64,000 nucleotides of DNA from Alphaproteobacteria bacterium (GTDB taxonomy: Bacteria > Pseudomonadota > Alphaproteobacteria > CALKHQ01): assembly GCA_965227515.1 (NCBI GenBank), contig CBDDFZ010000002.1, positions 1,344,001 to 1,408,000 of the forward strand, written 5' to 3'. The notes under the pieces were generated by a model. It ran no database searches. It had not been told where the DNA came from and saw nothing but the letters and a program-made list of their open reading frames with translations. Positions 31,037 to 52,517 of this stretch are shown here, one piece after another. Positions within the stretch are counted from its first letter, which is position 1, and every line of letters begins with the position of its first letter. A program made the position numbers and the translations under genes.

Positions 31037-31092
31037 ACAGTGGTTGGATGCAACCAACGGTGTTGATGAGGAATGGAAAGGTCGACTGCATA

Positions 31093-31851
31093 TCAGGCAG
31101 GCCGACGCGGGATCACCCAGTTCTGCCGCTCCTTGCGCGCGATGAAGTCGACCAGGTAGTCGACCAGCACCTGCTTCATGCGCTGGCCCTTCTCGCGGGT
31201 GGCCTTGCTGCCGTCGCCGGTGGCGCCCAGGTCGGTCAGTTCCTGGTAGTTCCAGAACTCCTGGATCTGGTCGTCCTTCTCGTCGACCATGCCGCGTGCC
31301 CGGTCCGGGTGGGTGAGGGCGGGGATCAACTCCATCGCCAGCGAGGTTTCCGCCTCTCCGCCATGGCCATAGCCCTCGTAGGCGTCCCACATCTCCTTGG
31401 GCAGGATCGACAGCGCGGTCGTCCACCAGCGTTCCATCACCGCGATGGCGACGTCCGGGTGCCGGAGCTTGATATCCTGGGCGGCGACACCGATGCACGG
31501 CACGTTGCCGTCGTGGCCGTTGATGACGACGATCTTCTTGAAGCCCCAGTCGATGACCGAGTTCAGCACGTCGCGGTAGACCGCGATGTTGGTGTCGTGG
31601 CTGACCGAGATCGACATCGGCTGGTGGCGGTAGTGCAGGCTCATGCCGAACCAGAGCGGCGGCAGCACCAGGGTGCGCGGCACCTTCTCCGCCACGGCCA
31701 GCGCCAGGTGGTGGGCGATGAACGCATCGGTGCCGAAGGGAAGGTGGTCGCCATGCCCCTCGCACGAGCCGATCGGCATCAACACCTTGTCGAAATCGCC
31801 GGCCGCGAGATCGGCGGTGTTCAGTTCCTCGTAGCGGAAGGTCTGGGCCAT
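31093..31851 (-). CDS. Creatininase-family amidohydrolase
   Basis: PIGSCEGHGDHLPFGTD, INGHDGN, HGGEAETS. Confidence 0.9.
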   Translation of the reverse strand: MAQTFRYEELNTADLAAGDFDKVLMPIGSCEGHGDHLPFGTDAFIAHHLALAVAEKVPRTLVLPPLWFGMSLHYRHQPMSISVSHDTNIAVYRDVLNSVIDWGFKKIVVINGHDGNVPCIGVAAQDIKLRHPDVAIAVMERWWTTALSILPKEMWDAYEGYGHGGEAETSLAMELIPALTHPDRARGMVDEKDDQIQEFWNYQELTDLGATGDGSKATREKGQRMKQVLVDYLVDFIARKERQNWVIPRRPA

Positions 31852-31872
31852 GGTGCCCTCTCTCTGCGGCCT

Positions 31873-32751
31873 CTACTTGCGGCGGGGCCTTGGTGGGGCG
31901 CCGAACAGAACCTCGCGCACGGCCGACCAGCCGGCCCGCCACGCGGCTTGCAGCGACACGCCGTCGACGGCGACGAAGCGCAGCGACAGGCCACAGCCGC
32001 CGGGCAACGGCGACACGCCGGCGTAGACATCGGGCAGTGCGGCAATGGCGTCGTCGATTGCGCCTTGTAGCGCGGGCAAGTCGGCTGTGGGCGCCCACAG
32101 GAACACGGTGCCGCAGCTGGTGAACGCCGGGTCGCGGCCGATGGACATGGCCTGGAATGCGGTGCCCGACATCGCCTGGCGGTCGCGGGCGAGGAGGGCG
32201 CCGCCGTCGTCCTCCAGCAGCACATCGGTGGTGACCTGACGGAACGGCGCGGCACAGCCTTCGGGGCCGCCGTCGGGATCGTGGGCGATGAAGGATTCGC
32301 CAACCAGCACCACCGCATCGCGCGCCGCGCGGACCCGCGTGGTGCTGACCAGAGCGGCGCCGGGGAACAGGATCGTCGCTTCCGGCAGGTACTCCAGCAC
32401 CGCGCCGGGGCCGGCCTCCAGGGTGGTGGCGATACGCGCCTCGCCGCCGGTCATCGCGTGCACGATGGTCGAGGCCTGGCTGGTCAGGTGCACGGCGGCG
32501 CGCGCCTCGGCCGCGAAGTCCATGGTCAGCCGGTCGTGCTCGAACACCCCGCCGGAGACCGATTGCAGGTACATGGTCGCCATGCCCGCCGGGTCGCCTT
32601 CGTCGCGGTGCGGCCGGCAGATGTGGAACGGGTAGCCCGAGCGCTGGTGCGCGATGAAGGTGTGGCCGTCCGGCGCCCGCCGGAACGCGAGGTCGATGGC
32701 GCCGGTGCGGGCGGTGGCTGCGTCCGCCTGTTTGACGGAGACCACGGTCAT
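31873..32751 (-). CDS. ureD: Urease accessory protein UreD
   Basis: YPFHICRP, SGGVFEHD, TSQASTIVH, LEYLPEATILFPGA; position in the ure operon. Confidence 0.85.
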   Translation of the reverse strand: MTVVSVKQADAATARTGAIDLAFRRAPDGHTFIAHQRSGYPFHICRPHRDEGDPAGMATMYLQSVSGGVFEHDRLTMDFAAEARAAVHLTSQASTIVHAMTGGEARIATTLEAGPGAVLEYLPEATILFPGAALVSTTRVRAARDAVVLVGESFIAHDPDGGPEGCAAPFRQVTTDVLLEDDGGALLARDRQAMSGTAFQAMSIGRDPAFTSCGTVFLWAPTADLPALQGAIDDAIAALPDVYAGVSPLPGGCGLSLRFVAVDGVSLQAAWRAGWSAVREVLFGAPPRPRRK

Positions 32752-32783
32752 GGCGCGTGGTCTCCGACCACAGAACCCGCTCC

Positions 32784-32871
32784 GCCATGCCCGCACTTGC
32801 TGCGGGCATCCACGAAATGTCGGCGAAGCCGACAACAAGACGTGGATGCGCGGATCAAGTCCGCGCATGAC
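32784..32871. repeat. CGTC-tagged REP doublet, copy 2 (between ureG and ureD)
   Basis: gccATGCCCGCA-CTTGC-TGCGGGCATccacg ... cgtggATGCGCGGA-TCAAG-TCCGCGCATgac. Confidence 0.88.
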
Positions 32872-32899
32872 ATAGGAGTATGATGGGGCCCAACGAGAC

Positions 32900-33553
32900 T
32901 CACGCCGCCATGTCCTCCAGCAGCACGTCGCGGCGCAGCAGGTCGACGATCTGGTCGATGCCCTCGCCGGCGCGGCAGTTGGTCAGCGCCAGCGGCCGGC
33001 CCTCGCGCACCTCTCGCGCCTCCGCCACCATGCGGTCGAGGTCGACGCCGACATGGGGCGCCAGGTCGGTCTTGTTGATCACCAGCAGGTCGCAGAGCGT
33101 CGGCCCCGGCCCGCGCTTGCGCGGAATGTCGTCGCCGCCGGCCACGTCGATGACGAACAGCCAATAGTCGACCAGGTCGAGCGAGAAGGTGGAGGCGAGA
33201 TTGTCGCCGCCGCTCTCGATGATCACCAGGTCGAGCTTGGGCAGCGCATGCTCCAGGAAATCCGCCGCCTCGATGTTCATCGACGGGTCCTCGCGGATGA
33301 CCGTGTGCGGGCAGGCACCCGATTCGACCGCCAGCACCCGCGACGGGTCGATCAGCCCGCTGTTCTTCAGCCGCTCGGCATCCTCCTTGGTCACCAGGTC
33401 GTTGGTCACCACCGCGACCTCGATCCCGCGCGCCGCAAGCGCCGGCACCAACCGCTCGATCAGCGCGGTCTTGCCGGAGCCGACCGGCCCGCCGATGCCG
33501 ACCCGCGCCGCTCCGGCCGCCTTGGTGGCGGCGTTGTTGCTGGTGGGGCTCAT
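32900..33553 (-). CDS. ureG: Urease accessory GTPase UreG
   Basis: [24 protein letters not shown]; ATGA overlap with the ureC stop. Confidence 0.95.
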
Positions 33554-35262
33554 CGCAGCATGTAGCGCTGGGTGAGGGGCAATTCCTTCGCCGGGTCGCA
33601 CATCGCCACCTCGCCGTCGACGATGACGTCGAAGGTCTGGGGATTGACCTCGATCTTCGGCAGCGCGTCGTTGTGCAGCATGTGGGTCTTGTTGAGCTTG
33701 CGCACCTTGGACGCGGGCAACGTCATCTTGGTCAGGCCCAACGAGCCATGGATGTCGGCATCCATCGCCGCCTGGTTGACGAAGCAGGCGCTGAGCGCCT
33801 TCTTCGCCTCGCCGAACGCGCCCCATTGCGGGCGCATCAGCAAGGGCTCGCAGGTCATCAGCGACGCCGCGCTGTCGCCCATGGCGCCCCACGCGATGAA
33901 ACCGCCCTTCACCACCAGCTCCGGCTTGATGCCGAAGAAGCCCGGCCGCCACAGCACCACGTCGGCGAGCTTGCCGCTCTCCAGCGAGCCGACATGGGCG
34001 TCGATGCCGAAGGTGCGCGCGGCGTTGATGGTGTACTTGGCGATGTAGCGCTTGATGCGCTCGTTATCGCCCATGCTTGTCGCCTCGCTGTCCAGCCGGC
34101 CGCGCTGCTTCTTCATCTTGTCGGCGAGTTGCCAGGTCCGGCAGATCACCTCGTTGATGCGGCCCATGCCCTGGCTGTCCGACCCGAGCATGGCGATCGC
34201 CCCCAGGTCGTGCAGAATGTCCTCAGCCGCCATCGACTGCGGGCGGATGCGGCTTTCGGCGAACGCCACGTCCTCCGGCACCGCCGGGTTCAGGTGATGG
34301 CACACCATGGTCATGTCCAGGTGCTCGTCGAACGTGTTCACGGTGTAGGGGTTGGTCGGGTTGGTCGACGATGGCAGGCAATTGGCCTCGCCGGCGACCC
34401 GGATGATATCCGGCGCGTGGCCGCCGCCGGCACCTTCCGTGTGATACATGTGGATGGTGCGGCCGTTGATGGCGGCCAGCGTGTCCTCCAGATACCCGCT
34501 CTCGTTCAGGGTGTCGGTGTGGAGCTGGACCTGGAAGTCCAGCTCGTCGGCGACCGACAGGCAGGTGTCGATCACCGCCGGCATCGCGCCCCAGTCCTCG
34601 TGGATCTTCAGGCCCAGGCAGCCGCCGGCCATCTGGTCGTAGAGCGAGCGCGGCTTCGACGTGTTGCCCCGTCCCAGGAAGCCGAAGTTGATCGGCCACT
34701 GTTCGGCGGCCTGTAGCATCTTGCCGACGTTCCAGGCGCCGCCACAGTCGATGCCGACCGTGATCGGCCCCAGCGAGCCGCCGATCATGGTGGTGATGCC
34801 GGACGAGATCGCGTGCTCGCACAACTGCGCGCTGTCGAAGTGCACGTGGACGTCGATGCCGCCGGGGGTCGCGATCAGCCCCTCGGCATCGCGCACCGTG
34901 GTGGCGGCGCCGACGATCAGGTCGCTGTCGACATTGTCCATGGTGGCGGGGTTGCCGGCCTTGCCGATGCGCACGATCCGCCCGTCCTTGATGCCGATAT
35001 CGCCTTTCACGATGCCAAGCACCGGGTCGATGACCACGGCGTTGCAGATCAGCATGTCGAGCGCGCCGGCCGCGCTGTCATAGCCGGCGGTCAGACCCAG
35101 CCCGTCGCGCAGCGTCTTGCCGCCGCCGTGCAGGCTCTCGTCACCCAGGAAGTTGTAGTCGTGCTCGACCTCGGCCAGCAGGTCGGTGTCGGCCAGCCGC
35201 ACCGCGTCCCCGGTGGTCGGCCCGTACATCGCGGCATAGTCCGCGCGGCTCATCTTCGCCAT
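33550..35262 (-). CDS. ureC: Urease alpha subunit homologue (divergent active-site pocket)
   Basis: [52 protein letters not shown]. Confidence 0.93.
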
Positions 35263-35265
35263 GGC

Positions 35266-35964
35266 TCAGGCCCCCTTGAAGCCGCGGGCGCGGGCACGCG
35301 CCAGTGCAGCCTCTTTCTGCAGCTCCGATTTCGTCGAGCCCTCGGTCAACCGGTTCAGGCCGGACATCTCGCCCGTGCCGCCGAAGCCGCACAGATTGAC
35401 CTCGCGCGCCTCGCCCGGCTCGAAGCGCACGGCGGTGCCGGCCGGAATATCCAGGTGCATGCCGAAGGCGGCGGCACGGTCGAAGTCGAGCGCGCGGTTG
35501 GCCTCGAAGAAGTGATAGTGGCTGCCGACCTGGATCGGCCGGTCGCCGGTGTTGGTGACCTTGACCTTTGCGGTCGGCCGGCCGGCGTTGAGCTGATGAT
35601 TGCCCTTGCCGGCGATGATCTCGCCCGGTGTCACCGCACCCTTCGGCGCCTTCTTCTTGCCGGGGCGGATCGGGTCGTGGACCGTGACCAGCTTGGTGCC
35701 GTCCGGGAAGGTCGCCTCGACCTGCAGCATCGGCATCAGGTCGGCGACGCCCGGCATCACGTCATCGCTGGTCAGGATGGTGGACCCGTAGCTGATCAGG
35801 TCGGCCACGCTGCGGCCCTCCCGCGCGCCCTCCAGAATCTCGTCGGAGATGTAGGCAATCGCCTCGGGGTGGTTCAGCTTCAGGCCCTTGTCGCGGCGGC
35901 GCCGGGCCATTTCGGCGGCGGTGAAGATGGTCAGCCGCTCCATCTCGGTCGGCGTCAGTAGCAT
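35266..35964 (-). CDS. ureAB: Fused urease gamma/beta subunit
   Basis: [11 protein letters not shown]...LNHPEA...[17 protein letters not shown], then PGEI...[19 protein letters not shown]...[11 protein letters not shown] in one frame. Confidence 0.95.
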
Positions 35965-36010
35965 TGCAGTTGTCTCCCCCGTCGTCGTGTCAGGCTGAGT
36001 TGGCGTGCGC

Positions 36011-36691
36011 TCATGTCGCGAACAGGCGCACGGTCTGGTTCGGGTGGCGCATGGCGGCGATCTCCGCCAGCGGCGTGAAGCTGCTGATATCGGCGGGTGC
36101 CGGCGGTGCCGTGTCGACCATGGTTGCCAGGTCGTGGTGCAGGTCGCCGCGCAGGCGCTGGGCGGCGGCGTGACCGATGATGTTGAGCCGCACCGCCGCG
36201 CTGAGGATGCCGGCGACCAGGCCATGGGCCGCCATCGCCGCGGCAGTTCGCGCGCCCAGCCCGGTGCCGTGCCAGACGACGCCTTGCACCACCGGAAGAT
36301 GTCCGCGCAGGCCCCCGTCGCGCACGGCATTTTGAAAGGCCTGCGCGCCCGGTGTCTGCAGGCGCGCATGGATCGACAACAGGGCGGCCCCGGCCCGGCG
36401 CGAGCCCTCGCGCAGTTCCGCCGGCATGGTCATCCGCTCGACGAGATCGTCCAGTTCGGCCAGCTTGGCCTCATCCCCTGCGGCGGCGTGGGCCGCGGCC
36501 ATGACAGGGCGGTCGAACGATTGCCAGCGGCCATGCAGTTGGCTGGACAGGAAGGCCCGCACGTCTTCCTCCGACGACAGCAGTCCGTCGCGGTGCAGCG
36601 GCTCCAGGCCCCACGAGAATGAGCCCGCCCCGCTGGGAAACAGGCTGTCGCCGTGTTGCAGGGCGACCAGCAGTTCGGCATCAAGGCTCAT
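36011..36691 (-). CDS. ureF: Urease accessory protein UreF
   Basis: [27 protein letters not shown]-terminal H...RLFAT. Confidence 0.88.
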
Positions 36692-37133
36692 CTTGCACAA
36701 TCTCTATGCGGCCACTGCCCAATAGAGGGGCAAGTCTGGCCAGGTAGGCGTCGGCGTCGCCATCCTGCGCCACGTTCAGCACATCGCCGTCGAATGTGAC
36801 GCGCCAATGCATGTTTCCCGCCAGGTAGCCGAGTTCCAAGGCCGCCGATGCCACGGTCGCACGCACCCGGATGACCGGCTGCGCGGTCATGCGCACGACA
36901 ATCGCCTGCTCATTCGTTAGGCGCAGGATGGCGCCATTGCACAATTTTTCATCACGAGGCAGGGCAATGGCGCACGCGGTGCCCTTGTCGGTGGTCGCCC
37001 GCAATCGGTGACGGCTGAGATCGGCTGGCGCCAAGGCGATGTATTCGACCGCATCGGCATGGCCAAGCTTGTGTAGCGCGTCGGCCATGTCGTCGTCGGT
37101 GGCCCGGCCCAGAACCTCGGTCAACAGCAGCAT
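36681..37133 (-). CDS. ureE: Urease accessory protein UreE (no His-rich tail)
   Basis: RHRLRATTDKG...LPR, LGYLAGNMHW; stop overlaps the ureF start. Confidence 0.8.
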   Translation of the reverse strand: MLLLTEVLGRATDDDMADALHKLGHADAVEYIALAPADLSRHRLRATTDKGTACAIALPRDEKLCNGAILRLTNEQAIVVRMTAQPVIRVRATVASAALELGYLAGNMHWRVTFDGDVLNVAQDGDADAYLARLAPLLGSGRIEIVQDEP

Positions 37134-37315
37134 GTCGCGCGCGCAATCGTGGTGGGATCGACGTTGCCAGCCGGGTGTCTCAGGATCGCCCTCCCCTTGA
37201 AGCGGGCCGTTCGGCCGACAATTGTTGAAACCGAGTGGCACCTAATCTGACCGGCAGTGAAACCGGCTGGCCGGTGCGGGGTCAATGCCGAAGTCGCCGC
37301 CGCGACCCGACCCCG

Positions 37316-37330
37316 TGGCACATTTCTTGA
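37316..37330 (+). promoter_or_regulatory. Candidate sigma54 (-24/-12) promoter for the transporter-amidase arm
   Basis: TGGCAC-ATTTC-TTGA matches TGGCAC-N5-TTGC except at the last base. Confidence 0.4.
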
Positions 37331-37503
37331 TGGTCATGGTCGCGACCGTTCGTCCGCAGTCGGATGATTGCGCCTTCGACATCTTGATGCTAGAGAAAAG
37401 ATGTTAACCGGCAGGGAAATCTCGCGGGTGCACAACACTTTGGCGCCCGACACAATGGCGAGGTCTGCGGGCGAGCAATGAGCGACCTGATCTGGAGGGG
37501 AAC

Positions 37504-38775
37504 ATGACCAAGTTGCACACGAATATCGGCCGCCGGAAGCTGCTGAAGGGCTCGGCGCTGGCCGGTGCCGCAGCCGCTTTTCCGACGCCTTACTTCTTCA
37601 CCCGTTCGGCGGCTGCGCAGGATGCCATTGAGCTTGGCGTGCTGTTCTCCCTGACCGGCGGTCTGTCGATCATCGAGAAGTCGCTGGCCGATGCCACCTT
37701 GATGGCGATCGACGAGGTGAATGCCGAGGGGGGCATCAACGGCGTCATGATCAATCCGATCGTCGAGGACGGCGCTTCGGATCCGCAGACGTACAACGAG
37801 AAGGCCAGCAAGCTGGTCCTTCAGGACCGCGTGCCGACCGTGTTCGGCTCCTACACCTCTGCCAGCCGCAAGGCCGTGCTGCCGGTGTTCGAGCGCCGCA
37901 ACAGCATGTACTTCTATCCGACGTTCTATGAGGGTTTCGAATGCTCCAAGAACGTGGTCTACACCGGCGCGGTGCCGAACCAGCAGCTTTCCAACTACAT
38001 CCCATGGATCATCAACGAACTCGGCAAGACCAAGTTCTTCATCGTCGGGTCGAACTACATCTACCCGCGCGAGATGGCCAAGGTCTGCAAGATCCTGATC
38101 GAGGAGAACGGCGCCGAGTGGATCGCCGACGAGTATCTGGAACTCGGCCACTCCGAATGGGGTGCCATGGTCTCCAAGATCAAGGACTCCGGCTGCGACG
38201 TGGTGCTGTCCAATGTCGTCGGCGACTCGATCGTGGCATTCTACCGTGAGTACAAGAACCAGGGCCTGACCCAAGAAGCGTTGCCGATCTGCGCCACCGT
38301 GACCTCGGAGATCGAGATCGCCGCTATGGGCCCCGAGTTTGCGGCCGGCAGTTTCTCCTCGTTCCCGTACTTCCAGGCCATCGACACGGACATCAACCAA
38401 ACGTTTGTCGAGAACTATCGTGCGTATGTGAACGATCCGGCTGCGGTGACCCACGCCGCGCTCGAGTCGTCCCATTTCGAGGTGCACCTGTGGGCGCAGG
38501 CGGCGCGGACTTTGAACGGCGACATCACACCGGACAACATCCGCGAGGCGATCAAGGGCCAGGAAATGGACGCAGCGAATGGCCATGTCCGCATCGCGCC
38601 GGAGAACCTGCATACGTATATGACCCCGCGTATCTCGCAGTGGAACGCCGAGGGCCAGGGCGTGATCGTGGACGAGTATCCTGAGCCCATCATGCCGCTT
38701 CCCTATTCGGCCTATGGCGAGGCAGAGGACAATCTTTTCTGCCTCGAGAGCGGGCTGGATACGTCCAAGCTCTAG
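37504..38775 (+). CDS. Amide/urea ABC transporter substrate-binding protein (AmiC/UrtA/FmdD family), Tat-exported
   Basis: GRRKLLK twin-arginine signal, TSASRKAVLPVFE, YEGFECS, GSNYIYPR. Confidence 0.9.
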   Translation: MTKLHTNIGRRKLLKGSALAGAAAAFPTPYFFTRSAAAQDAIELGVLFSLTGGLSIIEKSLADATLMAIDEVNAEGGINGVMINPIVEDGASDPQTYNEKASKLVLQDRVPTVFGSYTSASRKAVLPVFERRNSMYFYPTFYEGFECSKNVVYTGAVPNQQLSNYIPWIINELGKTKFFIVGSNYIYPREMAKVCKILIEENGAEWIADEYLELGHSEWGAMVSKIKDSGCDVVLSNVVGDSIVAFYREYKNQGLTQEALPICATVTSEIEIAAMGPEFAAGSFSSFPYFQAIDTDINQTFVENYRAYVNDPAAVTHAALESSHFEVHLWAQAARTLNGDITPDNIREAIKGQEMDAANGHVRIAPENLHTYMTPRISQWNAEGQGVIVDEYPEPIMPLPYSAYGEAEDNLFCLESGLDTSKL

Positions 38776-38789
38776 TAGGGGCTAACGAC

Positions 38790-38819
38790 ACCGGGCCGGT
38801 TCTGACAGACCGGCCCGGT
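38790..38819 (+). other. Intercistronic stem-loop after the substrate-binding protein gene (mRNA stabiliser or attenuator)
   Basis: accgggccggt-N8-accggcccggt, 11-bp perfect stem. Confidence 0.6.
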
Positions 38820-38836
38820 CTTCGTCGGGACCACGC

Positions 38837-39772: not shown

Positions 39773-39773
39773 C

Positions 39774-41363
39774 GTGCCAGCGACCAAGGTCCGTCTAGAT
39801 TATGCGGCGTACGCGATCGTCATCGTGGCCATGCTGCTGTTGCCGTCGTTCATGGACGACGTCTTCTGGCTGAACCGCATCTCCAAGTATCTCGTCTACG
39901 GCATGCTGGGCGTGGCGATTGCCATGGCCTGGGGCTATGCCGGCGTGCTGAACCTGGGCCAGGGCCTGTTCTTCGGGCTCGGCGCCTACATGCTGGCGAT
40001 GTCGCTGAAGCTGGCCAGTCCGACCAGCCTAGCCCAAGGCTCCGACCAGCCGATCCCCGATTTCATGATGTGGACTTCGGAGCCCGGGGCGGAGCTTGAC
40101 CTGTGCTGCATCACCGGCGGTTCGTTCCTGTGGATCCCGTTCGAGAATCAGTGGTTCGGCGTGTTCATGGGTATCGTGCTGCCGGTGCTGGTGGCGACCC
40201 TGGTCGGCTATGTGCTGTTCCGGCTGCGCATCTCCGGCGTGTTCATCGCAATCATCACCCTGGCGCTGGTGCTGCTGGTCCGGCTGATCGTCATCGACGC
40301 CCAGCCGGTCACCAACGGCTTCAACGGCCTGACCGACCTTGGCTGGTTCACGGTCAACGATTTCGAGCTCGACCCCTATTTCGTCGAGACCTACTACGTC
40401 ATCGCCGTCGTGACGGCGCTGGTGCTGATCTTTGCGCGATGGCTGGTCAGCACGCGCGCGGGCCTGATCCTGCAGTCGATCCGCGACGACGCCAACCGCG
40501 CTCGCTTCCTGGGCTTCAACGTCGCCCACTACCAGACCTTTTTCTTCGCGGTCTCGGCCGGCATCGCGGGGCTGGCCGGCATGCTGTTCGTGATGGCATC
40601 CGAGTTCGCGTCGCCCACGTTCATGGACCTGGCCTTCTCCATCACCATGGTGGTTTGGGCCGCGGTCGGCGGGCGCCATTCGCTGCTGGGCGCGTGCATC
40701 GGCGCCTTCCTGGTCAACTTCATCGAGGACACGGTCAGCGAGACCGACGCGCTGGTGGAGGCGTGGAAAGCGATCATCGGCTTGCTGTTCGTGCTGGTGG
40801 TGCTGTTCCTGCCGCGCGGGCTGGCCGGCTTCGCCAACGATGTGGTCGACCGGTACTTGCGGTTCGTACGCACGCCTCATGCGGCGCGGCGCCTGCCCTA
40901 TCCGCGCGTGGCCGCGCTCATCTGCATGGCCTTCGTGGTGACCATGCTGCTGCCGTGGATGTCATTGAACGAGGAGGCGAACTCGATGTTCGATGCCGCG
41001 TTCCTCGGCTTCCCCGGAGGCGGATGGTTCGGCCTGGCGATGCAGATCGCGATCATCCTGGCCATCCTGATCGGCATCTTCGGCGCCATCATCATGGCGT
41101 CGGAAAAGACCCTGCGCAGGGCGGCCGCCATAGCACCGGGCGTGTACATGCTGGCCGTGGTGCTGGTGTTCGCCATCGTTCTGTTTGCTGCCGTGCTGGC
41201 CGTTGAAGGCATGCAAGCGGAGTACGGTTTCTTCCTCGGTGCGGCAGTGGCCATAGGGCTGATCGCTTACGGATTGCTGGCACCCGCCCAGCCGCATGCA
41301 GTCACCGAAACGCAGCAAGACGCCGGCCCGGCAATCTCTGACGAGAGCAAGGCTGATGCGTGA
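39774..41363 (+). CDS. Amide/urea ABC transporter permease, UrtC-like, with extra C-terminal membrane domain
   Basis: WGYAGVLNLGQGLFFGLG, IPDFM, TNGFNGLTD, WAAVGGR, LPRGLAG; about 170 additional residues, largely hydrophobic. Confidence 0.88.
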   Translation: MPATKVRLDYAAYAIVIVAMLLLPSFMDDVFWLNRISKYLVYGMLGVAIAMAWGYAGVLNLGQGLFFGLGAYMLAMSLKLASPTSLAQGSDQPIPDFMMWTSEPGAELDLCCITGGSFLWIPFENQWFGVFMGIVLPVLVATLVGYVLFRLRISGVFIAIITLALVLLVRLIVIDAQPVTNGFNGLTDLGWFTVNDFELDPYFVETYYVIAVVTALVLIFARWLVSTRAGLILQSIRDDANRARFLGFNVAHYQTFFFAVSAGIAGLAGMLFVMASEFASPTFMDLAFSITMVVWAAVGGRHSLLGACIGAFLVNFIEDTVSETDALVEAWKAIIGLLFVLVVLFLPRGLAGFANDVVDRYLRFVRTPHAARRLPYPRVAALICMAFVVTMLLPWMSLNEEANSMFDAAFLGFPGGGWFGLAMQIAIILAILIGIFGAIIMASEKTLRRAAAIAPGVYMLAVVLVFAIVLFAAVLAVEGMQAEYGFFLGAAVAIGLIAYGLLAPAQPHAVTETQQDAGPAISDESKADA

Positions 41364-41405
41364 TCCGGGAACATTTGCGCGGGCGATGAACCCGGGGGTG
41401 CGGTC

Positions 41406-42188
41406 ATGAGCGACACGTCCGGCATGACGGGCGGCACGACGGGCGGCACGGCGCTGAAGGTCGACCAGCTCGAACTCGACTACGGCGGGTTCAAGGCGGT
41501 CGACGGCTTCTCCATGGAGGTGGCCGAGGGCGAGCTTCGCGTCCTGATCGGCGCCAATGGTGCCGGCAAGACCACGCTGATGGACCTGATCAGCGGCAAG
41601 ACCAAGTCGACCGCCGGCAAGGTCTTTCTGCACGGCACCGACATCACCAACCGGCAGGAGCACCAGATTGCGCGCGCCGGTGTCGGCCGCAAGTTCCAGA
41701 TCCCGAGCGTGTTCCGCGACCTGTCTGTGCGCCAGAATTTGAGCGTCGCCGCGACCGAGAGCAAGAGCGTGCTCGGCAATATCGGCCTTGGCCTGCGCCG
41801 CGCGCGCCGCGACGAGGTCGACCGCATCCTGGGCCTGATCGAGCTGCGCGAAAAGGCCGACGATGCCGCCAGCACCCTGTCGCATGGCGAGACCCAGTGG
41901 CTGGAACTCGGCATGCTGATGATCCAGGACCCGAAGATCATCCTGCTCGACGAGCCGACCGCCGGCATGACCCATGCGGAGACCCTGAAGACGTCGCGCA
42001 TCGTCAACGCCATGAAGGGCGAGCACACCATCCTGGTCGTCGAGCACGACATGAGCTTCGTCAAGGAGATCGCCAACACCATCACCGTCATGCACCTGGG
42101 CAAGCGGCTGGCGGAAGGCACCGTCGACGAGATCGAGAACGATGCGGCCGTGAAGCAGGCCTATCTGGGCAGCGGGGGCATCCACTGA
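41406..42188 (+). CDS. ABC transporter ATP-binding protein, UrtD-like
   Basis: [32 protein letters not shown]. Confidence 0.9.
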
Positions 42189-42880
42189 TGCTGTCGCTGG
42201 ACCACGTCAACAGCTTCTACGGGCGCAGCCAGATCCTGCACGATCTGTCGCTGGAGGCGCGCGAGGGCGAGATCGTCGCCATTCTGGGCCGCAATGGCGT
42301 CGGCAAGACCACCTTGATGAAAACCATCATGGGGCTGACCGACCGCATCGAAGGCACGATCCGGCTGCAGGACGTCGACCTGAGCCGGCGGTCGACGTTC
42401 GACCGGGCCCGCGCCGGCATCGCCTATGTGCCCCAGGGGCGCGAGATCATTCCCGATTTCACGGTGCGCGAGAACATCCTGATGGGGTGCTTCGCCCGCC
42501 CCGGCGAGCCCCGGCGGGTGCCCGACCTGGCGATGGAGCTGTTCCCCTATCTGCGCGAGAACATGGGCAAGCCCGGCGGTCTGCTGTCGGGCGGCCAGCA
42601 GCAGCAACTGGCCATTGCGCGCGCGTTGGCGGCGAAGCCGACCGTGCTGTTGCTCGACGAGCCGACCGAGGGCATCCAGCCCAACATCGTCGAGCTGATC
42701 GAGGGCGCGATCCAGACACTGAACCAGACCCTGGGGCTCACGATCTTGTTGGTGGAGCAGAACGTTGCCTTTGCCCGGTCGGCGGCGCATCATTTCGCGA
42801 TGATGGTCAAGGGCAGCGTGGTGGCGGCGGGGTCCGTCGCGGAACTGACCGATGCAGTGGTCGCGGAGCACATGATCTAG
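42188..42880 (+). CDS. ABC transporter ATP-binding protein, UrtE-like
   Basis: TGATG overlap; [36 protein letters not shown]. Confidence 0.9.
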
Positions 42881-42975
42881 CCTGTCCCGGCAGGTGCGGC
42901 TGCGCGCTGCGAACAACAACGGCCCGCCGATGGCGCAAAACGGCGCGGGCCGATCATCTAGAGAGGAGAGGCGTC

Positions 42976-44016
42976 ATGTATCACGGTGACATTTCCAGCA
43001 GTAACGACACGGTCGGCGTGGCCGTCGTCAACTACAAGATGCCGCGCATGCACACCAAGGACGAGGTGCTGGCCAATGCGCGCAACATCGCCTCGATGAT
43101 GGAAGGCATGAAGATCGGCCTGCCCGGCATGGATCTGTGCATATTCCCGGAATATTCGACCCACGGCATCATGTACGACGAGAAGGAGATGTACGAGACC
43201 GCCTCGTCGGTGCCGGGCGAGGAGACCGAGATTTTCGCGGCCGCCTGCCGGAAGACCAAGTGCTGGGGCGTGTTCTCGCTGACAGGCGAGCGCCATGAGG
43301 AGCACCCGAACAAGGCGCCGTACAACACCCTGATCCTGATGAACGACCAGGGCGAGATCGTGCAGAAGTACCGCAAGATCATGCCGTGGGTGCCGATCGA
43401 GGGCTGGTATCCGGGCAACTGCACCTACGTGACCGAGGGTCCGAAGGGCATGAAGGTCAGCCTGATCATCTGCGATGACGGCAACTATCCGGAAATCTGG
43501 CGCGACTGCGCGATGAAGGGCGCCGAACTGATCGTGCGCTGCCAGGGCTACATGTACCCGGCGAAGGACCAGCAGGTGGTGATGGCCAAGGCGATGGCGT
43601 GGGCCAACAACACCTATGTGGCGGTCGCCAACGCGTCGGGCTTCGACGGCGTCTACTCGTACTTCGGCCACTCCGCCATCGTCGGCTTCGACGGCCGCAC
43701 GCTGGGCGAGTGCGCGGAGGAGGAGAACGGCATCCAGTACGCGCAGCTTTCCGTCAGCGCCATCCGTGACGCGCGGGCCAACATGCAGTCGCAGAACCAC
43801 CTGTTCAAGCTGCTGCACCGTGGCTACACCGGCATGATCAATTCCGGCGACGGCGACCGTGGCCTGGCCGAGTGCCCCTACGATTTCTACAAGAACTGGA
43901 TCACCGATCCGGAGGGCACCCGCGAGGCGGTCGAGGCAATCACCCGCAAGACCGTGGGCACCGAGGAATGCCCGATGGACGGCATTCCGAACCAGAAAAC
44001 GGCGACCCACCGCTAG
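42976..44016 (+). CDS. amiE: Aliphatic amidase (nitrilase superfamily)
   Basis: [24 protein letters not shown]; Glu-Lys-Cys triad FPEYS / YRKI / ICDD; RBS GAGGAG. Confidence 0.95.
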
Positions 44017-44087
44017 GGCGAGTTGGATCGCCGAAGGTCTTCGGCGGGTTGTTTCATCGACTCGCCGAAGTTTCTCTTCTAGCTCAA

Positions 44088-44196
44088 CGTCATGGCCGGG
44101 CTTGACCCGGCCATCCACGTAGATGCAGCGAGACGGTGGCCGCGCCGAAGTATGGCAACTGCCGCGTGGATGCGCGGATCAAGTCCGCGCATGACG
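44088..44196. repeat. CGTC-tagged REP doublet, copy 3 (between amiE and the cbbQ-like gene)
   Basis: cgtcATGGCCGGG-CTTGA-CCCGGCCATccacg ... right arm identical to that of copy 2. Confidence 0.9.
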
Positions 44197-44264
44197 AAGG
44201 AAATCGAAGGGCAAGGTAGCGTCGGCGTGTGCGGCTGACGCGCTATTCTGGCCACGGAAACTGT

Positions 44265-45062
44265 ATGTCGATCGAGCAATATCTGATCGCCGAGGAGCCC
44301 TACTACCGGCCCATCGGCAACGAAGTGGCGCTGTTCGAGGCCGCCTACAGGCAGCGCATGCCGATGATGCTGAAGGGCCCCACCGGCTGCGGCAAGACCC
44401 GGTTCATCGAGCACATGGCCTGGCGGCTGAAGAAGCCGCTGATCACCGTCTCCTGCCACGAGGACATGACGGCATCTGACCTGGTCGGCCGCTTTCTGCT
44501 GGAGGCCGACGGCACGGTGTGGCGCGACGGTCCGCTGACCACGGCGGTGCGCGAGGGCGCGATCTGCTATCTCGACGAGATCGTGGAGGCGCGGCAGGAC
44601 ACCACGGTGGTGATCCACTCGCTGACCGACGAGCGCCGCGTGCTGCCGCTGGAAAAGAAGAACGAGCTGGTGCGCGCGCACCCCGACTTCCAGCTCGTCA
44701 TCTCTTACAACCCCGGCTACCAGAGCGTGCTGAAGGACCTGAAGGAGTCGACCAAGCAGCGCTTCGGCGCCATCGAATTCGGCTATCCCGACGCCGCCAT
44801 CGAGGCCGAGATCGTCGCCCACGAGGCCGAGGTCGACAAGGACCTGTCGCAGCGCCTGATCACCATTGCCGAGCGGTCGCGCAACCTGAAGGGCCACGGC
44901 CTGGAAGAGGGGGCATCGACCCGCATGCTGGTCCACGCCGCGCAACTGACGGCGGAGGGCGTGCCCCTGGGCGAGGCCTGCCAGGTGGCCCTGGTGCTGC
45001 CGATCACCGACGACGAGGACATGCGCGACGCGTTGTCCTCCGCCATCTCGGCATGCACCTAA
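44265..45062 (+). CDS. CbbQ/NirQ/NorQ-family MoxR AAA+ ATPase
   Basis: [55 protein letters not shown]. Confidence 0.95.
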
Positions 45063-45088
45063 ACCGTCGCCCCAGCAGGTGCTGAACG

Positions 45089-47362
45089 ATGGCGGACGCG
45101 CACCCGGCATTCCTGCGCGTCGTGGGCGCTGAAGACGCCGCACCTACGCCGGACCCGCAGCTCGCGCAGGCTTTTCCCGGAGACGCCACCGCCCGTTGGT
45201 TGCGCGCGGTGCGCAAGCTCGACGGCGCCGGCTACGGCAAGGCGGTCGTCGCCGCCTATGAACGGCAATCGCCAAAGATCGCGCTCGTCATCGGGCCGGA
45301 TGGCGCCATCGAGCTGGCCGATACCGTGTCCGCGGTGGCGATCAAGGCAGGCGTCGCGGCGGCGGCGATGCTGCCCGCGGCCGCCCTGACCGTCGCCGAG
45401 CGGCTGGACGACCTCGCGCGCTACCGCTCCTGGCTCAGCCTGATGCAGCGTTTCACGGCGCTGGCGCCTGAGTCCGTCGGCGTGGTGCTGGAGCGGATGG
45501 ACCAGTTGATCCGCGCGCTCAACGTCTCTCGGCTGGAGGCGTGGCTGCTGGCCGGCATCCGCGCCGCCGGCAGCGACCGCCAGCGCCGACTAAGCTTCTT
45601 CTCCATGGAGGACCCGGAGGCCGAGCGCTGGTTGCAGCGCGAAACCGGCGACGTGCTGTTCAGCGACGTCGAGCGCCGGATGAAGGCGTTCCTGACCGCC
45701 ATGTGGCAGGTGCGGGTGCCGATCCGCGAGCCCAGCCTGAGCGCGCCGGCGCCGATGCGCCGCCGGCCCGGCTTCGGGCCTGGCATCATCCGCATGCCGG
45801 CGACGTTCCCGGGCTTCCGTGGCCGCAAGGCAGAGGACCTTTTCCGTGCCGCGCTGGCCCACATCGGCGCGCACTATCACTATTCGACCACCAAATTCCC
45901 CATCGGCCAGCTGAAGCCGATGCAGGTCGCCCTTGTCTCGCTGATCGAGGACGCGCGGGTCGAGCACCTGGCGATGCGCGCCTTTCCCGGCCTGAAGCGG
46001 CTGTGGTTCCCGTTCCACATCGCCCAGTCCAGCGGGTCGACCACGGCACCCAGCCTGATGGCGCGGCTGTCGCGCGCGCTGATCGACGCCGACTTCGAGG
46101 ACGTCGATGCCTGGGTCAACAAGGGCCGGCACATGTTCTACGCGGTCGAGGAGCATTGGCACGATCCGGCCATCAGCCGGCACATCGGCAACTTGCTCGG
46201 TAACGATTTGGGCCAGCTCCGCATCCAGTTCAACGCCAAGGTCTACGTGCCCGAGCCGCCCTACCGCGACGACAACATGGGGCTGTGGGATTTCGGCGAC
46301 GATGCCGCCCACATCGAGGAGACCGAGATCGTGCTCGACAGCGTCCGCCTGCTGGAGCAGGAGGAGGACGACCCCGACCCGCCCGACCGCGACCGGGACG
46401 AGGGGACCGAGGAAGAGACGCCCAATGTCGCCAACGTGTCGCCGGAGGACGCGGTAGAGGATGGCATCCCGGTCGCGCGCTATCCGGAGTACGACTACGC
46501 CACCGGGCGCGAGCGCGCCGAGTGGACCACACTGGTGGAATACCGTCCGACGCCGGGTCCGCTCGACAGGGCGCAGGAGATCCTGGACCGGCACCATGGC
46601 CTCGTCACCCGCATCTCCAACCTCATCCGGTCGGCCCGGGTCAGCCGGCCGATGCGCCTGAAGCGCCAGCCGGAGGGCGATCAGCTCGACATCGACGCCT
46701 GCATTGCCGCCGCGGTCAGTCGGCGCGCCGGCGACACGCCCGACCCGCGCGTCTATCAGACCACCGAGCGGCGCAATCGCGACCTCTCGGTGCTGCTGCT
46801 GCTCGATGTCTCCGAATCGACCCGCGACCGGCTGCGCGACGGCTTCGCCAGCGTGCTGCAGGTAGAGCGCGAGGCGACCCTGATGCTGGCCCACGCCATG
46901 GACGGTCTCGGCGATCCGTTCGCCATCGCTGCCTTCTCGTCGAACGGTCGCGAGGACGTGCGTTACCAGCGCATCAAGGATTTCGGCCAGCCCTACGACG
47001 CGATGGCGCAGCGCCATCTGTCGGGTTTGGAGAGCGGGCTGTCGACCCGGCTGGGGGCTGCCATGCGCCATGCCGGCGCCGACCTGGAGCGCCAGCTCAC
47101 CCATCGCCGCCTGCTGCTGGTGGTGACCGACGGCGAGCCGTCCGACATCGACGTCGACGACCGGCAGTATCTGGTGGAGGACGCGCGCCGCGCCGTCATC
47201 AACCTCGCCGACAAGGGCATCGACACCTTCTGCGTCGGGCTCGACAGCGGCGGCGACAGCTACCTCAGCCGCATCTTCGGCCGCCGCAACGCGATCCAGA
47301 TCGACCGGCTGGAACGGTTGCCGGAGAAACTGCCGATGCTCTACTTCCGCCTGACAGCCTGA
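45089..47362 (+). CDS. CbbO/NorD-family VWA-domain adaptor
   Basis: IEDARVE, PPYRDDN, acidic linker, YPEYDY, MIDAS DVSES, STRLGAAMRHA, TDGEPSDID. Confidence 0.9.
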   Translation: MADAHPAFLRVVGAEDAAPTPDPQLAQAFPGDATARWLRAVRKLDGAGYGKAVVAAYERQSPKIALVIGPDGAIELADTVSAVAIKAGVAAAAMLPAAALTVAERLDDLARYRSWLSLMQRFTALAPESVGVVLERMDQLIRALNVSRLEAWLLAGIRAAGSDRQRRLSFFSMEDPEAERWLQRETGDVLFSDVERRMKAFLTAMWQVRVPIREPSLSAPAPMRRRPGFGPGIIRMPATFPGFRGRKAEDLFRAALAHIGAHYHYSTTKFPIGQLKPMQVALVSLIEDARVEHLAMRAFPGLKRLWFPFHIAQSSGSTTAPSLMARLSRALIDADFEDVDAWVNKGRHMFYAVEEHWHDPAISRHIGNLLGNDLGQLRIQFNAKVYVPEPPYRDDNMGLWDFGDDAAHIEETEIVLDSVRLLEQEEDDPDPPDRDRDEGTEEETPNVANVSPEDAVEDGIPVARYPEYDYATGRERAEWTTLVEYRPTPGPLDRAQEILDRHHGLVTRISNLIRSARVSRPMRLKRQPEGDQLDIDACIAAAVSRRAGDTPDPRVYQTTERRNRDLSVLLLLDVSESTRDRLRDGFASVLQVEREATLMLAHAMDGLGDPFAIAAFSSNGREDVRYQRIKDFGQPYDAMAQRHLSGLESGLSTRLGAAMRHAGADLERQLTHRRLLLVVTDGEPSDIDVDDRQYLVEDARRAVINLADKGIDTFCVGLDSGGDSYLSRIFGRRNAIQIDRLERLPEKLPMLYFRLTA

Positions 47363-47407
47363 ACTGAGAACCAGCGCAAGACGCGCGCCAAAGAGGGGGA
47401 CCCCACG

Positions 47408-48931
47408 ATGACCTTGCGCCGCCCATCCATCGACGACCTGATCACCATCGGCGAACGCGCCCACATCAACCTCAACGACGACGAGTTGGAGGTGCTGCCC
47501 GCCATCGTCGACGCCGTGCTTGAGGGCTACGACGCGCTGGACCAGTACCCCGACCCGGTGCGCAAGGTGACGCCAGCGGTGCGCGTGCCCGGCCCCCGGC
47601 CAACGCCGGAGGAAGACCCGCTGAACGGCATCGTGCGGACCTGCAGCGTGCAGGCGGTGCCGGAGGTGAACAACGGCCCGCTGTCGGGCAAGTCCATCGG
47701 GGTCAAGGACACCATTGCCGTCGCCGGCATCCCGATGACCTGCGCGTCGCGGCTGCTCTACGACTACACGCCGGATATCGACGCCACCATCGTGGAGCGG
47801 ATGCTGAAGGCCGGTGCCCACATCACCGCCGTGCTGAACACCTGTGACTTCGCGTTCTCCGGCGGCGGCCACACCTCCACCTACGGGCCGGGGTGCAATC
47901 CGGCCGCGCCTGACCATGCCGCCGGCGGCTCGTCCTGCGGTTCGGCGATCGCGCCGGCGGAGGGCGTCGTCGATATCGCGCTCGGCGGCGACCAGGGCGG
48001 CTCGATCCGCATTCCGGCGTCGTGGTCAGGTGTTGTCGGCCACAAGCCGACCCATGGCCTGGTGCCCTATACCGGCATCGTCGGCTTCGACCAGACCATC
48101 GACCACATCGGCCCGATGGCGATGACGGTGGAGGACTGCGCCCTCTTGATGGGCGTGATCGCCGGCAAGGACGAGAGCGCCATCGACCCGCGCCAGCCCG
48201 ACACTATCGACGTGCCGGACTATGTCGGCGGGCTGACCGGCGACATAAGCGGCCTGAAGATCGCAGTGGTTCAGGAAGGCTTCGGCGGGCCGGAGGCGAT
48301 GGCCCAGGTCGACGAGGCGGTGCGCGCGGCAGCGTCTAAGCTCGGCGGGATGGGCGCCACCGTGGAAGAGGTCTCGGTGCCGCAGCACATGATGGGCGTG
48401 CCGTTGTGGAACTGCATCGCCATCGAGGGCGGGGTCGACAGCTTCTATCACGGCCACACCAACTACGGCACCAAGGGCTGGTACAACCCGCGCCTGATCT
48501 CGGCGATGTCGCGGGCGATCAAGACCAATGGCGGCGACTTCTCGCCCACGGCCAAGCTGGGCGTGCTGGTCTACCACTACATGAAGGACCAGTATCACGG
48601 CGTGTTCTACGGCCGGGCGCAGAACCTCGCCCGCCAGCTCACCAAGGCCTATGACGAAGTGTTCGCCGACTTCGACCTGGTGCTGATGCCGACAACGCCG
48701 CAGACGGCGCACAAGATGCCGGCGATGCCGGAGGAGGACCGCGCCGAGCATATCGGCCAGGCGCTCAACATGGTGCGCAACACCTGCGTGTTCGACATGA
48801 CCGGCCACCCGTCGATCTCGGTACCGGTGAAGGGCGCGGGCGACCTGCCGATCGGCCTGATGCTGACCGGCCGCCAGTTCGACGACGCGACCGTGCTGCG
48901 CGCCGCCCACGCCTACGAGCAGGGGGCTTAG
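47408..48931 (+). CDS. Amidase-signature family amidase
   Basis: VKD catalytic Lys, GGSSCGS, GGDQGGSIRIPA, GHKPTHGLVPY. Confidence 0.93.
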   Translation: MTLRRPSIDDLITIGERAHINLNDDELEVLPAIVDAVLEGYDALDQYPDPVRKVTPAVRVPGPRPTPEEDPLNGIVRTCSVQAVPEVNNGPLSGKSIGVKDTIAVAGIPMTCASRLLYDYTPDIDATIVERMLKAGAHITAVLNTCDFAFSGGGHTSTYGPGCNPAAPDHAAGGSSCGSAIAPAEGVVDIALGGDQGGSIRIPASWSGVVGHKPTHGLVPYTGIVGFDQTIDHIGPMAMTVEDCALLMGVIAGKDESAIDPRQPDTIDVPDYVGGLTGDISGLKIAVVQEGFGGPEAMAQVDEAVRAAASKLGGMGATVEEVSVPQHMMGVPLWNCIAIEGGVDSFYHGHTNYGTKGWYNPRLISAMSRAIKTNGGDFSPTAKLGVLVYHYMKDQYHGVFYGRAQNLARQLTKAYDEVFADFDLVLMPTTPQTAHKMPAMPEEDRAEHIGQALNMVRNTCVFDMTGHPSISVPVKGAGDLPIGLMLTGRQFDDATVLRAAHAYEQGA

Positions 48932-52507: not shown

Positions 52508-52517
52508 ACGACCTTCG

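Follow-up and report, generated by a model that had tools for sequence, protein, structure and literature searches.

It is fairly probable that the locus described here enables its host to scavenge nitrogen from urea and short-chain amides, and that the CbbQ and CbbO proteins encoded in it (CbbQO) act as an activase of the aliphatic amidase AmiE. The locus occupies positions 31093–48931 of a 64,000-nucleotide stretch of DNA (the window, to whose positions all coordinates refer) from Alphaproteobacteria bacterium (GTDB lineage Bacteria; Pseudomonadota; Alphaproteobacteria; CALKHQ01; assembly GCA_965227515.1, contig CBDDFZ010000002.1, positions 1,344,001–1,408,000). It has a left arm on the minus strand with ureE, ureF, a fused ureAB, ureC, ureG, ureD and then a creatininase-family gene, and a right arm on the plus strand with a five-gene LIV-type ATP-binding cassette (ABC) importer, amiE, cbbQ, a gene for a 757-amino acid VWA protein and a gene for an amidase of the amidase signature (AS) family. 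CbbQO is one of three classes of Rubisco activases. Relatives outside carbon fixation are usually annotated as "NorD/NorQ" and have no assigned client. Three independent lines, namely the gene neighbourhood, the phylogeny of CbbO and a C-terminal His-Arg tag, indicate a second client of CbbQO, and this is most likely AmiE. The remainder of the locus (second urease, importer and AS amidase) is ordinary nitrogen scavenging put together from known modules. The gene list and the divergent arms with 370 bp between them had been proposed in a first-pass annotation made from the letters of the DNA; they were borne out by the listing of open reading frames and the Pfam and NCBIfam scans of the window from which the genes were called, several start codons being re-set by eye from where the NCBIfam or Pfam matches begin in the translations.

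The gene amiE (42976–44016, plus strand; NF009802 714.5 bits, cut-off 427) encodes 346 amino acids, the last two of which are His-Arg. The same end is found in all 44 complete AmiE proteins encoded next to cbbQ-cbbO and in none of 15 others. The 44 are those of the window, of two genomes from the same family (G001 and G003), of 35 loci of the genome set and of 6 sampled genomes; 5 of the 15 others are encoded beside a Clp-type AAA+ protein and 10 without an AAA+ neighbour. Left out of this count were loci L014 and L039, in which amiE is cut at the contig start, L024 with a broken frame, and L106 and L107. The other tails are GKEK-x-A-like in the five Clp-linked proteins, SNY in four, and different again in the remainder. 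When the 59 sequences are aligned, only H345 and R346 reach at least 90% in one set and at most 10% in the other, and the five to eight residues preceding them vary freely. In a tree calculated from residues 1–330, from which the tail is excluded, the classes interleave: the label cbbQO changes at least four times, and two of these changes are forced by well-supported branches. For example, one clade with a support of 99 unites L103 (cbbQO, ending HR) with L102, L099 and L092, which have no cbbQO and end AAK, DPH and DPR. An H[RK] end is confined to AmiE among the locus's 16 proteins, and only 43 of the 6753 long frames genome-wide have one.

Metagenome DNA gave a similar picture. A mixed AmiE alignment found 80 contigs, 79 with a complete AmiE C-terminus, and the penultimate residue is His in 68 of the 79 (HR or HK, one HA). 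Downstream of the 68 His-tailed genes 31 contigs show cbbQ/cbbO, 24 show a urease cluster and 13 have less than 1.4 kb; there was no His-tailed locus with at least 3 kb downstream and neither cbbQO nor urease. Conversely, six of the 11 genes with other tails have at least 3 kb downstream and show neither. In an AlphaFold2 model of the AmiE monomer (mean predicted local distance difference test, pLDDT, of 71) residues 324–346 fall below 50 and are without secondary structure. This low confidence is compatible with a free tail but is weak evidence, because AmiE is hexameric and the model is that of a monomer.

Such a tag is familiar from Rubisco. The Rubiscos encoded with cbbQ/cbbO have a common C-terminal HK/R motif, which is absent from other Rubiscos according to the accessible part of the study of the Acidithiobacillus ferrooxidans Q1O1 and Q2O2 activases (Tsai et al., 2015, PMC4660213). 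There it is also reported that neither activation nor stimulation of the ATPase is left once one or two residues are removed from the tail or a single Ala is added to it, that the penultimate His is critical and only partly replaceable, that an 11-mer tail peptide stimulates the CbbQO ATPase, and that the residues of the MIDAS (metal ion-dependent adhesion site) of CbbO are essential (PMC4660213). A 2017 review agrees, in the sections at hand, on the Rubisco tag and on the MIDAS of CbbO (PMC5437159). The RbcL genes in the cbbQO loci collected here end HR, HK, NR or NK.

The pair itself resembles that activase in several respects. The cbbQ gene (44265–45062, plus strand) encodes a MoxR-class ATPase of the AAA+ type with an AAA_5 domain (120 bits) and a CbbQ_C domain (110 bits), and the cbbO-like gene (45089–47362, plus strand) a 757-amino acid adaptor of similar length to that of A. 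ferrooxidans, with the VWA domain at the C-terminus (residues 568–730). The motifs GPTGCGK and CYLDEIVEA of CbbQ align with those of 5c3c. The MIDAS positions D573, S575, S577, T653 and D681 of the CbbO-like protein are invariant in 21 homologues and correspond to the positions that were mutated in CbbO2 of A. ferrooxidans (D573, S575, S577, T656 and D684), as listed in the portion of the review consulted (PMC5437159). In both systems the pair adjoins the gene of a homo-oligomeric enzyme with a His-Arg C-terminus. Here, however, where the system is known from its genes, this neighbour is a nitrilase-superfamily amidase, the genome has no Rubisco and the CbbO-like protein falls into a clade of its own. 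From the tail tag, shared with the Rubisco system, and the invariant MIDAS residues we infer that AmiE is the client and that its recognition is Rubisco-like. When a complex of CbbO residues 445–757 with AmiE was predicted, both given as alignments, the score was 0.00, which speaks neither for nor against such a contact.

The phylogeny separates the pair from the Rubisco activases. A CbbO tree was calculated with 74 rows, i.e., the window and 73 of 80 loci collected with a CbbO alignment (see below), seven frames shorter than 640 amino acids being omitted. The Rubisco-linked proteins form a clade of 32 rows with a support of 100; the clade of the window has 37 rows, 33 of them amiE-linked, and a support of 99; and five betaproteobacterial loci, four of them amiE-linked, branch between the two. 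CbbQ is 68–81% identical across most amiE- or Rubisco-linked loci (lowest values 43% in L024 and 52% in L023) and 68–74% identical to the Rubisco-linked CbbQ proteins. The identity of CbbO is 42–66% in most amiE loci, 36–39% in three betaproteobacterial ones and 33–40% in Rubisco loci. A conserved CbbQ and a diverged CbbO would fit a shared pocket for the tag combined with a client-specific adaptor.

Although NorQ and NorD have the same MoxR/VWA architecture, and NorD is the sole solved relative of the CbbO-like protein, CbbQ of the window is nearer to Rubisco CbbQ (5c3c, 417 bits; 6l1q, 393 bits) than to NorQ (9qh4, 321 bits). AmiE has no metal centre, unlike the target of NorQ/NorD. Among the annotated open reading frames of the window, to which this search was confined, there are no nor genes. 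The genome has no match to RuBisCO_large, so that the Rubisco neighbour of typical CbbQO is missing, and cbbQ is its sole CbbQ_C gene. The pair is thus accounted for neither by Rubisco nor by a task of the NorQ type. The earlier suggestion that the AAA+/VWA pair is dedicated to this locus is supported. The "NorD" annotation that these CbbO-like proteins carry in public databases is probably misleading.

The neighbourhood was followed in several collections. In the first, a CbbO alignment was compared with one genome per species, which yielded 80 loci, each flanked by as much as 10 kb of DNA to either side, typed by tblastn with the proteins of the window and RbcL from one locus: 38 have amiE, 25 have RbcL, and 17, mostly on short contigs, have neither. 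In most of the 38 loci amiE stands immediately upstream of cbbQ-cbbO and in the same orientation; it is convergent in L040, L044, L055 and L081, and urease genes intervene in L037 and L038. A full urtA–E-like set is present in 22 of the 38, and a complete ureE-F-AB-C-G-D cluster in L015, L037, L038 and L052, placed in three different ways with respect to amiE and cbbQO. Contigs of alpha-, beta- and gammaproteobacteria all have the combination, and its genes stand in more than one order. Closer to the source, the 15 genes from ureD to the AS amidase are syntenic in two of three genomes of the same family (G001 and G003; 79–86% nucleotide identity); the arrangement was not collinear in any of 22 genomes sampled from other families of the class. 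In the metagenome collection the urease genes follow amiE in 28 of 79 loci, as the string urtBCDE-amiE-ureE-F-AB-C-G-D.

A further collection was anchored on amiE, which was above the cut-off in 24 of 401 phylum-wide genomes including the source genome, so that 23 other loci were examined. A full Urt-like importer accompanies amiE in 20 of these; urease genes are present in one (L092) and a close AS amidase in none. The pair cbbQ-cbbO is present in seven; in L093 it lies 5 kb off beside RbcL, which leaves six loci with the pair directly after amiE. An FmdA-type formamidase was found by Pfam in 14 of the 16 loci without cbbQO, and in five of the 16 amiE is directly followed by a Clp-type AAA+ gene (AAA_2 plus ClpB_D2-small, 319–356 amino acids), so that an AAA+ protein of either kind is encoded immediately downstream in 11 of the 23. 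The five genes (L089:10463-11506, L096:10508-11578, L098:8338-9390, L104:10448-11482 and L105:10448-11407) are presumably of the AmiB type and may represent a second, independent pairing of an amidase with an AAA+ protein.

Importer, AmiE, fused-ureAB urease and cbbQO are thus a recurrent neighbourhood, which the AS amidase joins on occasion. The first-pass annotation had taken the genes for a coherent nitrogen-scavenging neighbourhood and had asked for a co-occurrence analysis. The genes do recur together in other genomes: importer-amiE-cbbQ-cbbO is found again and again, often with this urease type and sometimes with AS amidase; the creatininase-family gene was found beside none of these loci. 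Several loci have further genes. In Bradyrhizobium-type and soil metagenome loci an NCS1 permease sometimes lies between amiE and cbbQ or ureE (L019:6520-8989, L120:3238-5693, L140:4852-6198 and L123:1388-2737), and in L019 and L120 an alpha/beta hydrolase comes after the permease. In L012:5851-7740 an AmiC-like binding protein and AmiR (ANTAR) are encoded upstream of amiE, as in some cbbQO-linked loci.

AmiB of Pseudomonas aeruginosa is reportedly a Clp-type AAA+ protein. In the amiEBCRS operon of this organism it is encoded directly after amiE and is hypothesised to be a chaperone (Wilson et al., 1995, as cited in the available part of PMC12591593), whereas in the window a CbbQ-type ATPase and a VWA partner follow amiE. 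A 2025 review calls the role of AmiB poorly described (PMC12591593). Closer still is the plasmid-borne ami operon of Pseudomonas veronii Yu15, which likewise combines amiE with a CbbQ/NorQ-like AAA+ gene and a NorD-like gene but has amiC/amiR and, as far as it is described in the sections available, neither urease nor an Urt-like importer (PMC13209695). In a single sentence that paper of 2026 surmises a role in assembling or activating the amidase; the same sections give no tag, phylogeny or mechanism (PMC13209695). The term "undescribed" in the first-pass annotation is therefore too strong for the amiE-CbbQ-like-NorD-like operon; it may still hold for the tail tag, the CbbO clade and the link to urease, on which a full-text literature search, with most subscription journals outside its reach, returned nothing.

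How the parts might work together can be outlined as follows. The importer would admit urea and/or small amides, AmiE would cleave short aliphatic amides to the acid and ammonia, the second urease with its own UreDEFG would hydrolyse urea, and the AS amidase would extend the substrate range. CbbQO would most likely bind AmiE via the C-terminal His-Arg tag and the MIDAS of CbbO and would spend ATP to remodel it. Rubisco activases free active sites that are blocked by dead-end ligands. In the case of AmiE the purpose would most likely be to reopen enzyme stuck in a dead-end state, a candidate for which is the catalytic cysteine carbamoylated by urea. Urea, entering with the amides through the same importer, would poison AmiE; the urease would clear the urea and the activase would rescue the enzyme that was hit. 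Such a scheme would account for the repeated joining of importer, AmiE, urease and cbbQO, and also for the unrelated AAA+ protein encoded after amiE in other bacteria. Formamidases of the nitrilase superfamily are inhibited by urea and thiourea, and a "cysteine carbamoyl-switch" in a formamidase is named in the title of a paper cited by the same source, as far as its text could be consulted (PMC10781810). An alternative task, with the same client, would be to help in assembling the AmiE oligomer.

The scheme can be extended, tentatively and with more doubt than confidence, to all AAA+ proteins encoded after amiE, whether CbbQO or the Clp-type AmiB: they would be tail-recognising amidase activases, analogous in function to those of Rubisco, that rescue amidases of the nitrilase superfamily from covalent or tightly bound dead ends, for example S-carbamoyl-cysteine arising from urea, with urease as a second defence that removes the inhibitor. 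If the extension were true, CbbQO-type repair would not be peculiar to Rubisco and the role of AmiB would be explained. If AmiE is the client, a repair machine would have switched clients while keeping motor and tag, with the adaptor diverging; enzyme repair by AAA+ activases would extend to nitrogen metabolism; and there would be a testable hypothesis for AmiB of the classic Pseudomonas amidase operon. Moreover, the heterologous use of AmiE (in amide bioconversion or in selection on formamide or acetamide) might then need the partner genes when urea-like inhibitors are present.

Several points weigh against an amidase activase. AmiE needs no metal and many MoxR/VWA pairs insert metals, and well-studied AmiE is active when expressed without such a partner. 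For the inhibition of Pseudomonas AmiE itself by urea, reported in older literature, the full-text search found no paper. In 17 of the 23 sampled amiE loci cbbQO is not directly beside amiE; AmiE therefore does not, as a rule, require the pair for its activity. Tail and neighbour were linked from related sequences, with only about four independent transitions, and besides the tail no column of the 59-sequence AmiE alignment separates the classes, so that a class-specific acidic ligand for the MIDAS was not found. The 24 metagenome loci with urease show only urease after amiE within the DNA in view. L028 has cbbQO beside an AS amidase and no amiE within 10 kb. Two metagenome loci are irregular: in L162:564-1628 the amiE frame runs nine residues past His-Arg and cbbQO follows, and in L172:5001-6496 amiE ends TNL, overlaps ureE and is followed by urease. 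Finally, binding, remodelling and the inhibited state are all things that we infer for the amidase-linked CbbQO.

Another enzyme of the locus that could need the pair is the urease. CbbQO might serve urease, or urease and AmiE, for example in assembly or reactivation of the nickel site, much as NorQD inserts iron into nitric oxide reductase (PMC13036017, from the part accessible). We regard this as unlikely. It is favoured by L037 and L038, in which the order is amiE-ureEF(AB)CGD-cbbQ-cbbO, by L052 and L015, in which urease adjoins the pair, and by the metagenome loci in which the fused-ureAB cluster follows amiE. However, in 34 of the 38 amiE-cbbQO loci of the genome set the 10 kb retrieved do not include a complete urease cluster, in 28 metagenome loci cbbQO directly follows amiE with no urease in view, the close homologues of the urease cluster in L109–L112 are without cbbQO, the window's urease subunits all lack an H[RK] end, and the urease has a full UreDEFG set of its own. 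This set is complete in the window: ureG (32900–33553, minus strand; TIGR00101 239 bits, cut-off 204; start refined, the ATG overlapping the ureC stop) and ureE (36681–37133, minus strand; NF009752 166 bits, cut-off 162) are above their cut-offs, and ureD (31873–32754, minus strand; PF01774 104 bits; start moved to the Met at residue 39 of the open reading frame) and ureF (36011–36691, minus strand; PF01730 117 bits) were recognised by Pfam. UreD is 55% identical in G001 and G003.

The urease had been called "divergent" in the first-pass annotation, which does not apply. The product of ureC (33550–35262, minus strand) scores well above the urease equivalogs (TIGR01792 824 bits, cut-off 680; NF009686 872 bits, cut-off 354). 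It aligns over its full length with the ureases of jack bean, Klebsiella and Helicobacter with nearly equal scores (664–679 bits, 679 with 3la4), and the active-site motifs including MVCHHL are conserved as judged by eye from the alignment; these motifs contain the residues that bind nickel, the lysine that is carbamylated and the Cys-His pair of the flap. The ureAB gene (35266–35964, minus strand; NF009671 355 bits, cut-off 243) encodes Urease_gamma and Urease_beta domains fused in one protein of 232 amino acids. By its canonical nickel-site motifs the enzyme appears to be an ordinary nickel urease, present as an extra copy. The check for a second canonical urease was positive, since a ureC of 980 bits lies on the other replicon, C1 (G000:C1:2109412-2111109); the two UreC proteins of the genome are 56% identical.

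A fused gamma-beta subunit plus a large subunit is also characteristic of the two-subunit urease of Helicobacter, which likewise has AmiE/AmiF; NF010592 and NF010591 matched below their cut-offs, and UreC of the window is no closer to the Helicobacter enzyme than to plant or Klebsiella ureases. The order ureE-F-AB-C-G-D and the ABC importer presumably differ from the Helicobacter arrangement. In Helicobacter, urease and AmiE together are ammonia sources, according to the part of PMC10781810 at hand. On this fused-ureAB type the full-text search found nothing relevant. Close homologues of the fused UreAB (67–71% identity over the full length) occur in three of 400 sampled genomes; these also have amiE, but distant or on another contig. 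Urt-like importer genes adjoin two of the three clusters and an AS amidase with 42% identity adjoins one. A more distant cluster, L112, has the order urtABCDE-AS amidase-ureEF(AB)CGD.

It is quite unlikely that the client of CbbQO is some other protein (the AS amidase, the importer or one whose gene lies elsewhere) and that the His-Arg of AmiE is inherited baggage of one AmiE lineage, without a part in recognition. The few independent tail changes would agree with this, as would L029, in which an AS amidase gene lies between amiE and cbbQ, and L028 with cbbQO and an AS amidase but no amiE in view. But the AS amidases of the window, its relatives, L028, L029 and L013 have no H[KR] end; His-Arg is fixed in all 44 AmiE proteins while the residues before it vary widely; tail and neighbourhood change together within the well-supported AmiE clade of L103 on the one side and L102, L099 and L092 on the other; and experiments on the Rubisco system have shown this tag to be required there, as reported in the accessible part of PMC4660213. 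In L028:4984-12086 an NCS1 permease, an alpha/beta hydrolase, the AS amidase, cbbQ and cbbO are encoded in a row, and neither the permease nor the hydrolase ends in H[KR].

The AS amidase gene of the window (47408–48931, plus strand; NF005565 590 bits, cut-off 545) is conserved in G001 (83%) and in G003. The best solved relative of its product is 3a1k/3a1i, the Rhodococcus amidase (405 bits to 3a1k), and GVKDT, GGSS and GGSIRIP align with the Ser-cisSer-Lys signature of 3a1k. Homologues with 39–43% identity adjoin the same urease type in L109 and L112, and the enzyme is a frequent accessory that probably widens the range of amides.

That AmiE is the client of CbbQO also has to be compared with the first-pass annotation's own explanation, a single pathway that would take up a substituted or cyclic urea or an acyl-amide, open it with the creatininase-like enzyme and remove its nitrogen in steps through the urease-like enzyme, AmiE and the AS amidase with the help of an ATPase whose client it did not name. 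This is very unlikely. Four different families of C-N hydrolases do indeed stand together (Amidohydro_1/urease, Creatininase, CN_hydrolase and Amidase in Pfam), the AS amidase recurs beside the same urease type, the creatininase-family gene (31093–31851, minus strand) follows ureD on the same strand after 21 bp, and the ligand of the binding protein, which scores below the UrtA cut-off, may differ from plain urea. The enzymes, however, proved to be ordinary. UreC keeps all checked motifs, and AmiE closely resembles short-chain amidases of known structure (2plq, 659 bits over residues 1–341), with FPEYS, YRKI, PIEGW and IICDDG identical in the alignment; these contain the catalytic Glu-Lys-Glu-Cys residues. 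By every test run AmiE appears to be an ordinary short-chain aliphatic amidase. In addition, the modules occur apart and reordered, which fits enzymes working in parallel rather than in series.

The creatininase-family gene is absent from all related loci: it was found in 0 of the 80 CbbO-anchored loci, where the fetched DNA often ends before the region beyond ureD, in 0 of the 23 amiE-anchored genome loci and in 0 of the 80 metagenome loci. Nor was it found in the syntenic locus of G001, in which about 7 kb beyond ureD are covered; in G003 the contig ends 850 bp past ureD. Its product matches the broad family PF02633 (199 bits) and falls short of the equivalog TIGR04448 (99 bits, cut-off 235); the best solved relative is 3lub (80 bits), itself labelled a "putative" creatininase. 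The gene is a strain-specific local addition and not a conserved member of the cluster.

The importer consists of a urtA-like periplasmic binding protein (37504–38775; PF13433 459 bits; TIGR03407 375 bits, cut-off 492.75), a urtB-like permease (38837–39772; TIGR03409 343 bits, cut-off 250), a urtC-like permease (39774–41363; TIGR03408 358 bits, cut-off 296, over residues 28–352), a urtD-like ATPase (41406–42188; TIGR03411 323 bits, cut-off 304) and a urtE-like ATPase (42185–42880; start refined; TIGR03410 299 bits, cut-off 286), all on the plus strand. UrtB, C, D and E are thus above their cut-offs and the binding protein is below, so that this is not a full UrtABCDE system. Another UrtA-family match on C2, the replicon of the locus, exceeds the cut-off with 581 bits and is situated about 25 kb before the window, and the importer of the window is therefore a paralogue; the second urt-like cluster, with its above-cut-off UrtA, spans G000:C2:1314208-1319796. 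The importer is probably Fmd/Urt-like, with a binding protein for amides and/or urea. The fmd transporter of Methylophilus methylotrophus (fmdCABDEF; Mills et al., 1998) carries short amides and urea, as stated in the part of PMC10781810 consulted. The amidase there is of the FmdA type (PF03069), whereas the window has AmiE and no FmdA; the likeness of the importers is drawn from context, such a transporter standing beside amiE in 20 of the 23 sampled loci. The urtC-like permease has a hydrophobic C-terminal extension of about 160 amino acids (40870–41363) in which several membrane spans are predicted by eye; neither the loci L003–L113 nor the rest of the genome contain a homologue of this extension, and the UrtC match in G003 stops at residue 372. 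In G001 (L083/L084, G001:C2 ~219900-223200) the matches to urtA, urtB and urtC are broken up into several frames, which points to frameshifts or assembly errors.

Least credible of all is that independent operons merely lie side by side without forming a functional unit, for although each module is found alone elsewhere and both a hairpin resembling a terminator and a repeat lie between amiE and cbbQ, the same combination recurs in contigs of three proteobacterial classes in several orders. The hairpin with its T-run (44039–44070, plus strand) stands directly 3′ of the amiE stop and 5′ of cbbQ. Judged by its sequence it is possibly a partial stop, by which cbbQO would be expressed below amiE; a similar pattern of high amidase and low downstream expression is described for the Pseudomonas amidase operon (PMC12591593).

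The divergent control region of 370 bp (37134–37503) contains two words TGGCAC-N5-YTGA (37237–37252 and 37316–37331), which resemble the −24 element of sigma-54 promoters. The GC at −12 is missing, and a sigma-54 promoter is not claimed. The corresponding region of G001 has a word GGCAC-N6-TGCA, seen by eye. The region could not be aligned with those of G001 and G003, hence there are no conserved regulatory sites in this comparison, and a sigma-70 scan gave nothing relevant. AmiR_N had no match in the genome, nor had the control queries of the same search.

The locus lies on C2, the smaller (1.45 Mb) of the two replicons of a 5.5-Mb genome with a completeness of 99.67%; the GC content of the window is about 66%. 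Upstream are gltB, an RNase T-like exonuclease, a 2-hydroxyacid dehydrogenase and an HpcH aldolase, and downstream a PhyH dioxygenase, recG and mfd. Two families of palindromic repeats resembling repetitive extragenic palindromic (REP) elements flank the locus, at 31005–31041 and, as a cluster of the second type 3′ of the AS amidase gene (repeats D16, I1 and I9), at 48976–49088. The first-pass annotation had read them as bounding the locus. They do flank it, but the first family is also present inside, as a pair between ureG and ureD (32783–32877; repeats D6 and I2) and at 44165–44201, and the repeat-containing stretches 31001–31069, 32782–32872 and 44084–44197 match both replicons elsewhere with 81–100% identity, 32782–32872 having four matches of 86–90% on C1. 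Borders of a mobile element are ruled out by these copies inside the locus and elsewhere in the genome and by the core genes on both sides; the repeats are dispersed, generic intergenic REP-like elements. With gltB (21750–26309), recG (49991–52558) and mfd (52518–55994) the second replicon carries core genes and is in this respect chromid-like.

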